33,207 bases of DNA from a virus (lineage: Duplodnaviria; Heunggongvirae; Uroviricota; Caudoviricetes), in the IMG/VR virus record IMGVR_UViG_2617270945_000015; one strand, given 5' to 3'. The position numbers are program-made. Below are positions 15,001 to 30,000 of this stretch, piece after piece. Position 1 is the stretch's first letter; each line of letters starts with the position of its first letter.

Positions 15001-18000
15001 AACCAATAATTTTCGGGAAATCGCGGAAACGTCAACCAACTATCCGGTAATTCCTAGTGAGGTGTTGTCCGCAATCCTGAAGGTTGCCAAGATTCGTGCC
15101 GATTTCGATGATTTTGACGGTGACAGGCGAGGTATCGGTGATTGTCTGGATGAGGCTGAGCAAGAGCTTATCGTTACCATTAACAAATATGCCAGTCAGT
15201 TGGCAGCAGAACCGATAGCGACTAATGACGTTCGAGAGCAAACAGCCGTTCCGCCAGTTCCGGTAACTCCGGATGGTTGGATAAGCTGTAGTGATCGAAT
15301 GCCAGAAATGGGAGAGCGACAATACTATGTGTTAGCAGCTGACTTTAAAAACAACTACCCACCAAGCATCCCCAACACTCAGGTCGGCGTATATGGCGAC
15401 TGGTTTAATGATGGCAATCCCACTTGGGATGACGGTGATGGCGAAGACCTGCATCTCAAAGAAGTAACCCACTGGATGCCGCTACCAGAACCGCCGAAGG
15501 AGGTACGCCAATGACCTAGCCTGAAGCATTTGCAATTGTAGTGGCTGCCATTTTGATCGCACTGATTGTTTTTGCGATTTGCCGCTGGGGGTAAAATAGT
15601 TCACCTGCATGGAGATTTGATGCCGGGGAATTGTGGGGGAGCATTCAAACCTCTCCCCTTCCCGGTTAAAGACTCCATTGCTTTGCGGTCAGAGAGATAC
15701 ATCAGCTTCATCAGCTTCATCAGCTTCATCAGCTTCATCAGCTTCATCAGCTTCATCAGCTTCATCAGCTTAATGAAACGCATAGATCCGCCATGCTTTT
15801 TCAGCAAATACGCTGCCATTTGCGCAACTTTTTCTTCATTAAACATAAATCGGCTCTCTGTCTCACATGAAACACTCTTTCTGACTATATGTTAATAGCT
15901 CCGGTTATTACAGGTTAATGTGTGTTTATTTCTTAATCAGCCCCGCACTTCCGTACGGGGCCATTTCTGTTAATCCACTCCCACTTTTTTGTTGTACTCG
16001 CGGTTAAACCGATCCACGGCAACCTTCATATCCCGCTCTACCGATTTCACCATCGCCGCCTGCTGCGCCAGACTGAGAGAACTGTCGGCATAAATGGCAT
16101 CGCGCTGTTTGCGCAAATCCTTCAGTCTCTTCCGGGTATCCTGCATAAGCCCGTTCATCAACAATTTTCCGTTGTTCTCGTCAATGAACGCCGTTCTTTC
16201 TGCACCGGTCAGACTCTTCAGCTCTGCGTGATACTGCGCAACCTCTGTCATCCGGTCGTACATCTTCTGCTGGTCTGCATACGGCATCACCTCACCCGAA
16301 ATTTTCCCCAGGAAGGGCACCTGCTGTTCCGGTATATCAATACCATTCAGCGATTTCACCGCCGCATCCGTGGTTTTGGAAATGAAGCGCCCTGTCCCTC
16401 CGGAGATATAGTCAATCCAGAATTTCAGCGATTCCGGTGTGATATCCACCGCGCCGGGACGATACTGGCTGCCACCTGAGAACGCATTCAGCCAGGATGC
16501 AAACGCCTTGTACGCTTCTGGCGTTGAACGTCTTCCCAGCTGGCTGTCAGGTTTTGGTGTACCAAACGGCATGTTCTCCTGGTAAATCTGCGCCCCCATG
16601 AAGTTTTCATTCATGGCAAGGTTCGCAAACGGACGCAGAATGGTCGGTGCTGCGTTTTTCAGCAATGCCCCCGACAACGTTTCCGACGTCTCGCTGCCGA
16701 TCGGGCTGAATGCTCCCAGGATACCGCCGACAACATTACCGGCAGCACGTGAAGCAGTCAGGTCGCCCGCTGCCACACCTTCAGCTGTATGACCAAGCAG
16801 GAAGAACACGTTGTACCCGTAAGGCAGAGGAATACTCCAGTACTCACCGGCCTTGCCCCCGAACATCGATTTCATGATGACGAGGTTACGCTCTTTCACA
16901 TGAGACGGTACTTTGTCGTACCAGTTACCCCCGTCATCATCCTCCCCCGCCACACTGCGGTTAAGCGAGCCAAGCAGATAACCCGCTCCCACAGCTGCAA
17001 GCACGATTTTCTGCGGTACATTGAGATTCTTCCAGCGAAGGCGCTCCAGTAACGGCCCGTCGCCATTAAGATGTCCGAGCGTTCTCACCAGGTTTGCGGT
17101 CCCCTGAATGCTGGCGTTGGCAAACATGTACAGCGAGTTCATCAGCATCCCCTGCTCACCACGACGGTTAAAGTTCACCGTCATGTTTTTGGCAAGAGAC
17201 GCCGCCTGCTGGCGTGACAAACCGGCATCACGGGCGTGTTTATAGGCAGAAAGACGCAGAGCGTTTTCAACCGCGCCGTTGGCATCCTCGACCAGGTTCA
17301 GGAACGAATGCCATGCACCGATACTCTGGCCTTTCCATCCGCCCTTCGCCAGCGACACAAGGCGATCCATTTCCTTCTGCTGGCCCTCAAGGTCACCCAT
17401 GTTAAACCAGCCGGTTTTACCTCCGTCCTCAACAAACTCTTTCCACACTTTCTGCCACTGTGCGCCTTTGCCCGTGAGGGTTTTACCCCGCAGACTTGCG
17501 TATACGGCTGACATGGCGGAACGGCTGTCTTTCACCACAGCCAGCGCGGATAAGTTATCCAGCCCTTTCAGTTTGCCGTCGCTTCTTCCCTGCTCAGCCT
17601 TCAGGTTCATCACCGCAGTCTGCACGTCACGGATGAAGTTACTGACCAGAAATTCCGGGTTATACGACGTGTTCACCGTTGCCAGGAAGCGGTTAACTTT
17701 CCCCAGCGTACGGATTACGGCGTTACTGGTTTCCGGCCCCATGTTCTTCATCGCACGCATCAGGCGCGGATCATGAAGTTTAATGTAGTAAGTTTTGCCG
17801 TCCTTTTTGGTGGTGAAGTAGCGATCCGCCATCATTGCCATCGGCACAGGGCGCTCGACAACTTCGCGAATGGTTTCACCAGTTTCCTGGTCCTTGCGCT
17901 CTGCAATCACACGCATTGTATCCGGTCTGTCATCAGTGAATACCTGCCAGTAATCCTTGTCGGGATTATCCTGTACCAGTTTCAGGAAGGCGTTACCCAC

Positions 18001-27000: not shown

Positions 27001-30000
27001 ACTTTGGTATCACCACCGCCTTTTTTTCCGCCCATTATGGCCCCCTGGATAACAAAAAACCCTGCCGGGGCAGGGTCAGAATGTGAATTGCAATTGGTTT
27101 ACACACGATAATGAATACAGTGGCAGTCAGACCGCTATCCTGAACACCATGAAGCCATCCTCATCATCCGGCATTCGCTCAAAGCCCAGACGTTTTCCCA
27201 GCCGGATAAATCCCCGTCTTGCCGTATGAAATTCAGCCCAGCGTCCGCCAGCCAGACGGGTTAATGTCTTCACCTCCGGCAGATAACGCTCAACGCTGTT
27301 ACTCCCCGTACACACGCCCAGCAACACCAAAACATAAGGGATACCATCAGCACTGAGCACAGAACGCAGCACCAGAAAGCCATCAGGTGCCTCAAAACAA
27401 AACGCCTGCTTTTTAAGGCAGGCGTCTTTAACTTCATTCATAAATTCAGGGTTGCGGGAATTTCTCACAACACGCTGCATATACCGGAGAATTTTGTCGT
27501 CCATTCTCTCACCAGAAACGGGTGCCATATCGGCTGAACCTCAGCAACCAGTTGACGGGGGCTTTCGTCCCCGTCGCGGTTTTCCTACTGCTTACACTGT
27601 AAGAACGCCGCAAACTCCGCTCCCCACAAATTCAGCCGGAACTCACACAACGAGCCGTGTAACATCCAGATGGTGAAGATTACCGTCATACAAATTGTGA
27701 CGGTGATGAGCGATTTTTGCGACATAGCGCTTGCCTCCTGAGTGGAGAGGCGCTAACCTTCTACTTGCTTAAGGTATGATGGTTAGGGCCTCGGGTTAAA
27801 CAAAATGTTTGACTCGGGGCCTTTCCACATCAGGCCTTCAGGTTCACCTTCCAGCCATCAGCCGAAAGACACCCGCGCATAATCTACGATTTTTGCCCTG
27901 CACGGGCAACAAAAAACCCGCCATCACAGCGGGTTATGACATGTTGTCGGGTATTACTCAGAATTTCAGGCCAATGCCTGCAAATAAACCATCAGTTTTC
28001 CAGTCGCCAGAGCCTGAGCTTTCATAAGTGACGTCCATAGTAACACTTTCATTGAAGTTAAATTGCGCGCCGACAGACCATGCAATAGACGTTTTTTTGG
28101 TGCTGTTACTTTCAGAAAAACTACCTACACCACCATTAAGATTGTCGTTAACTTTCAAATCATAAGTTACTTTTGCAACCGCAACACCTGCCATTGAATA
28201 CACACTGAGGTATTCATTAAACCGCCACGAAGGACCGGATAGTAGACTCCAGTAATTAGCCCTGATATCAGTTCTCGCTGAAGCTGCCGGTTTTTTTACC
28301 TCTCGTGATGGATCGGAAGGCTTAACATCAATGAATGCCTGTGCATTAGTCATGGATCGAGCCCATGCAAAAGAGGTTATAACACCGATCTCATCCGTAA
28401 TCTCATAACGATACTTAATGTTCATTCCCAAGGGACTTTTCTCTTTACCATCATGGCCCCGGACAAACGCATCGTCATATTCTCCAGGTGAATTGAAATA
28501 GTTTTCATTCACAAAATTGTTAAAGGTATCAAGGTTATGAAGACTTAAATCCTTAACAAAATTATTCAGCCCGGATAGCTGAAGGTGAGCGAATCCAAGG
28601 GATACGGTACTATCACCAGATGCAGCATGTGCCTGTGCAGTTAATCCACCTAAGCCCAGAGTTGCGCACACAAGAAATTTTGTGATACTTTTCATTTTAA
28701 GAATCTTCCTATATTAAAAACATTGTTCTCTCTGTCCTTTCCACATTTTTGATTATTTACCATCCTGCCTGGAAATAAAAAATAAAAATTTTTCTTAAAA
28801 TGATTGATAAATTTTATTGTGCTAATCATACATTGAAGTATTAATAACAAGAACTTTGTCTACATAAGGCTTTCGAATATCCCATGTTGCACCACCTGAA
28901 TAATGCTCACAGGAATATATTTTATTTCCTGTAGCGCCAGTGGATGTGGTATAAATCGGTCGGTCATAAGGAGTTCTTTTCCAGTTATAATACCCGACCA
29001 GTGCAGGCATAATTGCGCATGGATATCCAAGGTCCTTTTCAAATTTGATATCAACAGGTATTAACTTCGCGTCAAGCAGCATCATTTCGCCATGGTAAAT
29101 CATCTCACCCAACGGATTATACATGGCGATACCATACTCAGAAGGTTGAGTAACCATATTCGCAAAAGCATAAACAGTCGTAACACCAGGATTCGTTCCC
29201 CTGACAATTTGATGAAGCCTTAAGGCATGATATCCATCAATCTGTTCATGCGTGTACATGACATCGGCCTTCTTCTCTGTTCTGATAAAGAAAAAACAAC
29301 TTTTTCCTGACGGAATTGACGTTTTAAAAAAAGCCTTCTCAGTCGCCGGAATAGTTCCCTTATTGATAAGACACTGAGGCGTAAACCCCGGGCTTATCCA
29401 CAAGCTGCCATCTGGTTTCGTAATGCTTAAACCATACATACAACTCACCCCCAGAATGTATAAATATATGACCCCATCCCCTGCTCAAGATTTGACCACA
29501 TCACCGTATTGCCATTAATGGTTATCTTCGGTACTTTCCGGTCCTTAAATACATTATTCCACGGAAATAATGAACAGACTGCCTGCAATGTTTTCCCTTC
29601 TGGTTTATTCGTATACGTTTTTGATCCCGACTCCGCCGTAAACCTGTCCAGGAAAAATATGGGAGTAAGCACGCCCGTAACATTAACATTATTTCTGTTG
29701 TATATTGCAAAACCATATTCTGCCAATGTCAGCCTCCGGCTCAGCTTAACCTGCCTATGCGAACAGCCAGGCGTCCGTTCTGGTCATAAACTTCAATTTT
29801 ATCATTGCGGATCACCAGCCCCACATTCTGATTAGAGTAACGAATTGTCAGTTGCCCTTGTGACGTAACACTGAAAAGGCCTCCAATATTCAGGTTACCC
29901 TGAGAATCAACCTGAAAGTTTCCGTTTTGAATAACGGCACTCCGAATAACTGGCGAAGTGATACTTACCCCGGCTTTTACCTCATCCGCCACAACCTTCC

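Follow-up and report, generated by a model that had tools for sequence, protein, structure and literature searches.

The subject of this study is a block of five genes in a 33,207-nucleotide (nt) stretch of viral DNA (IMG/VR record IMGVR_UViG_2617270945_000015; hereafter the window), ending in a gene for a 2784-amino-acid (aa) protein that we call the giant. The block is very probably the internal-virion (ejection-protein) operon of a short-tailed prophage of the 933W/phi24B type. Open reading frame (ORF) calling in the window placed five co-oriented genes on the minus strand from 27035 to 15970, each with a good ribosome-binding site (RBS), as a preliminary description of the sequence had reported:

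27035-26379, minus strand: 218-aa gene (ORF and RBS)
26376-25930, minus strand: 148-aa gene, read from ATG (ORF and RBS; an alternative GTG start at 26382 gives 150 aa)
25920-25669, minus strand: 83-aa gene (ORF and RBS)
25658-24393, minus strand: 421-aa gene (ORF and RBS)
24324-15970, minus strand: 2784-aa giant gene (ORF and RBS)
24361-24342, minus strand: terminator-like hairpin with T-run (pattern scan and sequence), in the 68-nt spacer directly 5' of the giant gene RBS
27058-27077, minus strand: terminator-like hairpin (pattern scan alone), in the 91-nt spacer ahead of the 218-aa gene

Shine-Dalgarno motifs of the GGAG/GGGGG type lie 6-11 nt 5' of all five starts. The intergenic gaps are, in order, 2, 9, 10 and 68 nt; the tight packing described earlier therefore holds for the first four genes and not for the giant gene behind its spacer. 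Both putative hairpins would be read through by Q-antiterminated late transcription. The G+C content is 52-56% over the block against 39-50% in the flanks, and the 8.4-kb giant ORF is not explicable by chance.

Virion orthologues and distant relatives of the block

A megablast search recovered the complete 11-kb block at 90-95% identity in 186 phage records, mostly short-tailed Shiga toxin (Stx) phages, among them 933W, VT2-Sakai, phage 86, Min27, P13374 and vB_EcoP isolates. The suggestion in the preliminary description that giant ORFs may occur in some Stx-type prophages was thus correct. The same genes are found in 933W (L0134), Sp5/VT2-Sakai and phage 86 (gp31-gp35), and RefSeq labels for the block genes are hypothetical, 'bacteriocin' and 'LPD5 domain-containing protein'. 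Gene order in phi24B, 933W, Sp5/VT2-Sakai and phage 86 is as in the window, the block again follows nozzle, needle and lom, and the giants carry the same Pfam domains. The window copy differs from this group as a distinct allele (~94% nucleotide identity), located in ynfG and with no integrase beside the giant gene. Phage 86 and phi24B are classified in Sepvirinae, Traversvirus.

Upstream of the block lie two tail genes that define its context, and a syntenic 133-aa gene:

31006-32631, minus strand: 541-aa nozzle gene, upstream tail context (phrog_511; orthologue of phi24B gp57 'nozzle')
29741-31009, minus strand: 422-aa central needle fibre gene, upstream tail context (phrog_496; orthologue of phi24B gp56 'CTF')
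27127-27528, minus strand: 133-aa gene, syntenic directly upstream of the block (phrog_610; 3 Cys)

The 422-aa gene had been taken for J and the neighbourhood for the tail genes of a lambda-type siphovirus, among which the block would be an oddity. That context is ruled out by the distribution across 186 records, by the podovirus nozzle and needle neighbours, and by the closest genome, whose capsid protein RefSeq labels 'N4-gp56 family'. The source is a short-tailed 933W/phi24B-type prophage (Traversvirus) in E. coli ynfG, and such podoviruses regularly carry the block as a conserved piece of their morphogenesis module, placed after the nozzle and needle genes.

Virion evidence comes from a 2026 preprint on phi24B (bioRxiv 10.64898/2026.04.10.717836), in which cryo-electron microscopy and liquid chromatography-tandem mass spectrometry proteomics were applied to the same virion preparation. 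Its authors found gp47 (2811 aa; LPD5, LPD1, LPD38, MuF_C) abundant in virions and absent from the map, and proposed it as an ejection protein. Orthologues of all five window proteins appear in the virion proteome, with the following numbers of peptide-spectrum matches (PSMs):

gp47 (giant): 10,962, second after the capsid protein
gp48 (421 aa): 1,634, with a peak in the ~45-kDa gel slice
gp51 (218 aa): 523
gp50 (148 aa): 129
86-aa reading frame (83-aa protein): 13

We assign virion presence to the window proteins by orthology, at 83-97% identity to the phi24B proteins. These data support the first of two options raised in the preliminary description, a virion-packaged ejection or internal-protein module with a polyvalent effector; the second, a late-expressed toxin or anti-defence cargo outside the virion, is unsupported as stated. 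Per residue, gp47 and gp48 yield about as many PSMs as the 12-copy portal, which on a rough reading suggests some ten copies of either protein. All three parts of gp47, N-terminal, middle and C-terminal, gave peptides. Its signal lies mostly in the top gel slices, above the portal, and tails downwards, a pattern compatible with mostly full-length protein plus fragments; the stored proteome file gives peptide totals rather than counts per slice. The orthologue of the 133-aa gene is absent from this stored proteome. The preprint text is silent on gp48, gp50 and gp51 and dismisses the 'bacteriocin homologue' as a contaminant, while its supplement labels the abundant gp48 'Transcription factor?'; treating the five proteins as one virion-internal module goes beyond the preprint's own claim. 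Its length for gp47 is given as '>3,000 amino acids' in the Discussion against 2811 in the Results.

The module extends well beyond Stx phages. By tblastn, the last ~900 residues of the giant recur in giants of Vibrio, Ralstonia, Burkholderia, Ruegeria and Bacillus podophages. Right after the nozzle and needle genes of Vibrio phage D70 come ORFs of 131, 201, 117, 77, 467 and 3066 aa, which are the reciprocal best matches, in the same order, of the window 133-, 218-, 148-, 83-, 421- and 2784-aa proteins. The two nozzles share 38% identity. The D70 giant is 40% identical to the window giant over 947 C-terminal residues and 29% identical to its residues 161-408 (E=3e-27); the middle is not shared, and no Pfam domain was recognised in the D70 middle. 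From these comparisons, the five-gene module appears older than the Stx phages. An HNH endonuclease gene sits inside the D70 module on the opposite strand (20867-21658, minus strand), between the 77- and 467-aa genes.

Further relatives occur in Bcep22-like Burkholderia phages, where mass spectrometry finds both the giant and the products of the genes immediately preceding it associated with virions (PMC9144972). The giants Bcep22 gp75, JC1 gp69, DC1 gp67 and Ralstonia Heva gp07 ('DarB-like') share with the window giant, at 27-28% identity, a ~800-aa module that includes LPD38 and lies at the extreme C-terminus. One virion-associated upstream protein, DC1 gp64, is homologous to the window 218-aa protein. 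The JC1 paper relates the Bcep22-like portal, capsid and 'head closure' proteins to those of 933W (PMC9144972). The cargo differs: the DC1 giant carries SLT, an Eco57I-type methylase, a helicase and LPD3, all missing from the window giant. Since the latter has no helicase or methylase domain by Pfam, the 'DarB-like antirestriction' name is not transferable to it.

The four smaller proteins have family matches and relatives of their own. The 218-aa protein (phrog_611; 96% identical to phi24B vb_24B_44, 'gp51') weakly matches phrog_8003, a 'virion structural protein' family, and has a Gly/Ala-rich stretch near its C-terminus that is only moderately hydrophobic; homologues include Burkholderia DC1 gp64 (E=5e-8), Vibrio D70_0016 (E=1.7e-14) and an Aeromonas phiARM81mr 'putative virion structural protein'. 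The 148-aa protein (phrog_596) is 97% identical to phi24B vb_24B_45 ('gp50'), and its positional homologue is D70_0017 (E=1.4e-4). The 83-aa protein (phrog_594; 93% identical to phi24B vb_24B_46, the 86-aa reading frame) is the glycine-zipper peptide noted earlier, with a Pfam Gly-zipper_YMGG match below cut-off and an uncharged 35-residue glycine-zipper tail (residues 49-83) ending in GSLF. Its homologue D70_0018 has 40% identity (E=9e-8) and the same C-terminal motif. On its sequence features, the 83-aa protein is a candidate membrane-inserting ejection protein. We set aside the 'bacteriocin' label that RefSeq attaches to it in phage 86, whose basis is glycine-zipper resemblance alone.

The 421-aa protein (phrog_601; 83% identical to phi24B vb_24B_47, 'gp48') begins with a GFAQGLLAG motif followed by a Q/N/R-rich helical region, and D70_0020 is its homologue (E=5.5e-13). 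Compared with DC1 gp66/Heva gp06, it shares only a 24-residue N-terminal GFAQGL motif, which is not significant (BLAST E=0.69, hhalign E=0.056). The 541-aa nozzle showed no similarity to Heva gp06, a comparison that was misdirected. In three lineages, the protein just before the giant starts with a similar Gly-rich motif, MSGFAQGLLAGFS, ...GGFASGLIAGS and ...GAFAQGLVQGMA (loci: the N-terminus at window 24393-25658; D70 (L007), 21777-23180; L003, 3095-4681); beyond this motif, the Stx and Burkholderia lineage proteins are without detectable homology.

The five proteins also share an exclusion of cysteine. They contain 0 Cys in 3,654 aa, whereas 16 neighbouring window genes encode 87 in 5,480 aa (1.6%); the probability of zero by chance is about 4e-26. 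The five-protein module of D70 has 0 Cys in 3,928 aa, and its neighbours have Cys. Across the aligned residues of 38 homologues, the C-terminal module of the giant shows 0 Cys in 33,723, and 134 representative giants hold 48 in 360,855 aa, with 108 of the 134 free of any. The DC1 and Heva giants, like the window giant, have no Cys, nor do their virion partners; the interleaved acyltransferase and PAPS-reductase morons have ~2%. The established ejection proteins N4 gp50, gp51 and gp52 contain 0 Cys in 4,294 aa, T7 gp15 and gp16 together 0 in 2,065, and T7 gp14 1 in 196. Window proteins that do contain Cys (133 aa, 208 aa, lom) include the 133-aa one missing from the virion proteome. Cys may be excluded because these proteins have to cross a ~3-nm channel in an unfolded or loosely folded state and emerge in the oxidising periplasm; we did not find this interpretation stated in the literature consulted.

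The giant gene is under purifying selection. Against phage 86 (L001 18711-27062), the ratio of nonsynonymous to synonymous substitution (dN/dS) is 0.13 for the gene and 0.06 for its C-terminal module. Codons 451-1680 are near-identical to phage 86 (dS 0.006-0.04), whereas the flanking N-terminal, MuF_C and C-terminal parts have dS 0.2-0.4, and the gene is thus an intragenic mosaic. The MuF_C segment is the most divergent (85% aa identity).

Domain architecture of the giant protein

The preliminary description could name no family for the block beyond the glycine-zipper peptide and zincin-like motifs. All five proteins in fact fall in existing, function-unassigned PHROG families, and the giant, which matches phrog_616 over its full length and is 90% identical to phi24B gp47 (vb_24B_48), with the LPD5 region differing most, has Pfam LPD5, LPD1, MuF_C and LPD38 matches, all above Pfam cut-offs, as well as an NCBIfam CLCA_X match:

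22975-24324, minus strand: N-terminal module, residues 1-450 (phrog_37568; D70 conservation; hydropathy)
21655-22974, minus strand: acidic Pro/Gln-rich low-complexity linker, residues 451-890 (18-24% D+E, 7-13% Pro)
20755-21186, minus strand: LPD5, residues 1047-1190 (Pfam PF18799, E=4.5e-43)
20044-20811, minus strand: CLCA_X-type zincin, residues 1172-1427 (NCBIfam NF041907; HEWFHSLD at 1274-1281)
19357-19935, minus strand: second HExxH helical domain, residues ~1464-1656 (LRHEIIHH at 1541; separate domain in the model)
18829-19107, minus strand: MuF_C/PBECR, residues 1740-1832 (Pfam PF18819, E=1.1e-16)
15973-18762, minus strand: C-terminal module, residues 1855-2784, mostly alpha-helical (AlphaFold; predicted local distance difference test (pLDDT) 82, predicted template modelling score (pTM) 0.79)
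16309-16926, minus strand: LPD38 in the C-terminal module, residues 2467-2672 (Pfam PF18857, E=3e-48)

The N-terminal module contains the most hydrophobic segment of the giant (residues 181-199) and a glycine-zipper-like one (406-433; weak Gly-zipper match), both only moderately hydrophobic. No family match was found for the linker. The domain 'beads' of the middle are 150-275 residues each in the predicted model; the LPD5 region is a predicted alpha/beta domain with pLDDT ~90. The CLCA_X match (E=5e-45) covers profile positions 3-245 of 250 at 153.8 bits, below the NCBI subfamily cut-off of 260, and the domain contains Pfam LPD1 (residues 1351-1430). The HExxH motifs reported earlier are present at residues 1274 and 1541. 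The H, E, H and D of the first do not vary among 36 diverse homologues; the second is conserved across homologues and weakly matches Peptidase_M76 (E=0.19). The Pfam MPTase model gave no match in the giant at E<=0.01, alongside these two conserved HExxH domains. MuF_C scores 61.3 bits against a gathering cut-off of 27.6, and its PBECR domain is predicted to have an RNase-like fold. The preprint's description of MuF_C as a metallopeptidase is not followed here: the defining paper (PMC5512222) makes it an RNase-like PBECR domain, and the HExxH motifs lie elsewhere in the giant.

CLCA_X is a predicted zincin metalloprotease family found mostly in phages, prophages and plasmids, and a sister of the self-cleaving CLCA_N (Lenart et al. 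2013, PMC3650047). The giant has the HExxH...D signature of the family, here spaced HExxHxxD; the protease activity of the family is itself only predicted. MPTase (zincin) domains have been proposed to process polyvalent proteins (PMC5512222), and the CLCA_X zincin may act in this way on the giant. The preprint suggests another role, that the two HExxH domains are cell-wall peptidases opening peptidoglycan for the conduit, rather than acting in self-processing or on host proteins. A wall hydrolase is common in podovirus ejection proteins (as in T7 gp16 and, with SLT, the DC1 giant), the window giant has no other candidate for wall opening, and a zincin fold is supported. Its nearest structural matches, however, are the intracellular or toxin-type zincins MtfA, PPEP and lethal factor, not M15/M23 wall peptidases; CLCA_X is sister to a self-cleaving family; and the preprint assigns the peptidase activity to MuF_C, the RNase-like domain. 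We consider wall cleavage rather unlikely, although it concerns one step alone and is compatible with an ejection role for the block.

The C-terminal module is the most widespread part of the giant. In a full HMMER search, the C-terminal 930 residues matched 8,626 representative clusters, 4,756 of them at E<=1e-30. Obvious fragments aside, the match ends at the protein C-terminus in the best 150 of the 8,626 matches, and the proteins among the listed matches range from ~800 to 5,181 aa. We found no solved structural relative of this module. The ends of the giant are conserved and its middle is variable; other relatives carry methyltransferases, ART-PolyVal, InPase or PBECR1 in the middle, before the same C-terminal module. 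A 'solo' 981-aa protein (P0045) on an Amphritea metagenome-assembled contig is made up of the C-terminal LPD38 module alone. It belongs to an integrase/excisionase element of ~16 kb (L006 4052-20029), and neither capsid nor tail genes were recognisable in the 23 kb examined. Such an element might be a satellite with an ejection-module protein of its own.

LPD5, LPD1, LPD38 and MuF_C/PBECR were defined by Iyer et al. in 2017 (PMC5512222), who reported LPD38 as phage-only. The polyvalent proteins of that study resemble the giant in carrying many effector-type domains in one polypeptide among virion genes; with these features, the giant belongs to the polyvalent-protein class and to a family of LPD38-terminal giants. 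That work is computational, a text search of it returned no 933W or Stx, and its LPD38 is a 189-residue domain, compared with part of a ~900-aa module here. Several searches of the giant were negative: a Pfam scan of unassigned segments at E<=1 gave nothing usable, a sequence search of the PDB with the whole protein gave no match, and Pfam recognised none of the helicase and DNA methyltransferase domains that the DC1 giant has. The preliminary description had named close homologues with a structural role, such as a tail fibre or tape-measure protein, as the finding that would make the giant a known component. Neither Pfam nor PHROG gives a match to either, the tail of this podovirus measures 22 nm, and the tail model does not include the orthologue; we therefore rejected that identity.

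Flanking genes and chromosomal context

Between the needle gene and the block sit morons, including lom and a hok-like gene. The latter is a 46-aa Hok/Gef-type ORF (MSQKSLITVTICMTVIFTIWMLHGSLCEFR...) at 27585-27725 (minus strand), between lom and the 133-aa gene; its equivalent in the closest genome is annotated 'Hok/Gef family protein', and no Rfam match to Sok RNA was found at the gathering threshold. Downstream of the needle gene, G+C is low (39-43%) at 28000-29500, a stretch with lom and two genes for proteins of 208 and 93 aa. The phi24B orthologues of these two proteins, gp54/gp55, are suggested in the preprint to sit at the tip of the needle and perhaps to help in recognising BamA (bioRxiv 10.64898/2026.04.10.717836). 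The 133-aa protein is homologous to Vibrio phage D70 D70_0015, at the same position (E=6e-5), and is probably not a virion protein.

Downstream, early-left-type accessory genes (AntA, Ead/Ea22, DUF551) occupy 11.4-15.9 kb and converge on the giant gene. At the edge of the prophage nearest the host, an Rfam match to sRNA-Xcc1 (11952-12037, plus strand; 73.4 bits, gathering score 53) overlaps the ORF for the AntA-type antirepressor in its 5' region. Between the giant gene and the early-left genes (window 11100-15970), we found no integrase, whereas phage 86 has a P4-like int after its giant gene; the attachment/integration module must therefore lie elsewhere or have been lost. Positions 1 to ~11,000 are E. 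coli chromosome (rspB, rspA, speG, ynfC, ynfE, ynfF), in which tandem 808-aa molybdopterin oxidoreductase ORFs (6104-8530 and 8588-11014, plus strand) are the ordinary paralogues ynfE and ynfF. The insertion site is ynfG, as this gene is truncated by the prophage in the closest complete genome (99.1% identity).

Proposed ejection role and its alternatives

The N4 and T7 ejectosomes provide the mechanistic precedent (PMC13434306). Like the block, N4 gp52/gp51/gp50 form an operon of small membrane or tunnel proteins plus a giant multi-domain protein near tail genes, and N4 shares with the phi24B group a T=9 capsid and a giant that is invisible in virion maps; gp50, the 3,500-aa virion RNA polymerase, is also free of Cys. 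N4 differs in having RNA polymerase cargo in place of zincin and PBECR, and three proteins rather than five. T7 gp14/gp15/gp16 are likewise encoded together after tail genes; they reside in the head and, once ejected, span the envelope, gp15 and gp16 lack Cys, and gp16, the largest, carries an enzyme domain, as the giant does. T7 differs in that there is no homology, its proteins are much smaller, and the lytic transglycosylase of gp16 is missing here. Judged by position, virion presence, size pattern and Cys exclusion, the block appears to be the counterpart of both operons, and the giant, by the same analogy, resembles T7 and N4 ejection proteins in function without being homologous to them.

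We propose the following sequence of events. The block would be transcribed with the late genes, and its five Cys-free products would be packaged inside the T=9 capsid. Release of the central needle would let them out via the portal-nozzle channel, before the DNA or together with it. Those small proteins that end in a glycine zipper or a hydrophobic stretch (the 83- and 218-aa proteins, and probably the 148- and 421-aa proteins) would then form or prime a conduit from the outer membrane through the periplasm, acting as T7 gp14/gp15 and N4 gp52/gp51 do. The giant would be the third and largest component, like T7 gp16 or N4 gp50: its N-terminal module would associate with the membrane and conduit, and its ~900-aa C-terminal module would serve as a common chassis for packaging, translocation or both. 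The middle would hold swappable enzymatic 'beads' (LPD5, the CLCA_X zincin, the second HExxH domain and MuF_C/PBECR) that act in the first minutes of infection, a layout resembling the 'beads-on-a-string' picture proposed for N4 gp50 (PMC13434306). The zincin may cut the beads apart; alternatively, its targets could be the cell wall or host proteins. Within this virion-packaged reading, an injected anti-defence or host-takeover role of the central domains is plausible.

Several observations weigh against this proposal. We infer, rather than observe, that the five proteins leave the capsid and enter the cell. The giant is without a classical transmembrane helix, and Pfam recognises in it no peptidoglycan hydrolase of the sort that T7 gp16 and the DC1 giant possess. 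Its C-terminal module is predicted as a single compact 930-aa unit (pTM 0.79) and would therefore need unfolding to pass the tail. Neither phmmer nor profile comparison detected similarity of the module to N4 gp50-52. The Cys exclusion is correlative and, since the N4 capsid protein also has no Cys, is not a specific or sufficient signal by itself. The virion data come from orthologues, in a single preprint on a sample six months in storage, whose authors treat the 83-aa orthologue, at 13 PSMs, as a contaminant. The window prophage itself may not be inducible.

Some of these points are shared by a different account, in which the five proteins are packaged and never ejected: as an internal core or the remnant of a scaffold, they would order the DNA or lend stability to the T=9 head, and would stay in the capsid. 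The giant is abundant in virions yet unseen in maps, emptied particles retain a DNA layer and unassigned contents, and ejection of the five is a deduction rather than a measurement. Two zincin-like domains and a PBECR domain are, however, hard to explain in a passive core, and glycine-zipper tails are present. The strict Cys exclusion is common to the proven ejected proteins of N4 and T7, and the DarB-like helicase/methylase or lytic transglycosylase cargo of relatives makes sense only in the host. We regard a retained core as improbable.

Less probable still is a non-structural role as late cargo, with the block being a toxin or anti-defence set of the moron type, expressed in the lysing cell or the lysogen and found in virion preparations as a contaminant. 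The block does adjoin real morons (lom and the hok-like gene), and the 83-aa protein bears the RefSeq 'bacteriocin' label and is discounted by the preprint authors. Against this, the giant is second in abundance after the capsid protein, and gp48 is on par with the portal in PSMs per residue. The block order is kept in lytic-looking Vibrio podophages without surrounding morons, the Bcep22-like homologues are virion-associated, and the genes not found in virions are the Cys-containing interleaved ones. That the block is a decaying, functionless remnant of a defective prophage, as the missing integrase (unlike phage 86) and a possible lack of inducibility might suggest, appears effectively refuted for the genes themselves by the intact 8.4-kb ORF and five good start sites, the dN/dS values (0.13 for the gene, 0.06 for its C-terminal module), and the same block in 186 isolated phages.

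Much of the block has been described before: it has long been present in sequenced Stx phages, its domains were named in 2013 and 2017, and a virion location for the giant orthologue followed in 2026. What is new is the view of five genes as one module, its deep synteny with Vibrio phages, the conserved ends and variable middle of the giant, the spread of a C-terminal module without a solved relative, and the Cys rule. A broader reading, which we hold tentatively and at slightly less than even confidence, is that the giant is one instance of a widespread modular delivery chassis, in which conserved ends carry interchangeable enzyme cargo through T=9 podophage tails and Cys exclusion is the footprint of that passage. 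In that case, injected phage proteins might be predicted across whole genomes simply from their lack of Cys.

Shiga toxin genes are spread by short-tailed Stx phages. The 11-kb block, ~18% of an Stx-phage genome, offers a concrete five-protein candidate ejectosome for the passage of their DNA across the envelope, and its giant carries at least four enzyme-like domains with putative targets in E. coli. The Cys exclusion shared with N4 and T7, the swappable middle, and a C-terminal module found in thousands of proteins, all of them computational results, give the block relevance beyond Stx phages. Should the delivery-chassis reading hold, the Stx-phage cargo (CLCA_X zincin, second zincin, PBECR and LPD5) would amount to an uncharacterised kit with which clinically important phages take over the host or counter its defences in the first minutes of infection.

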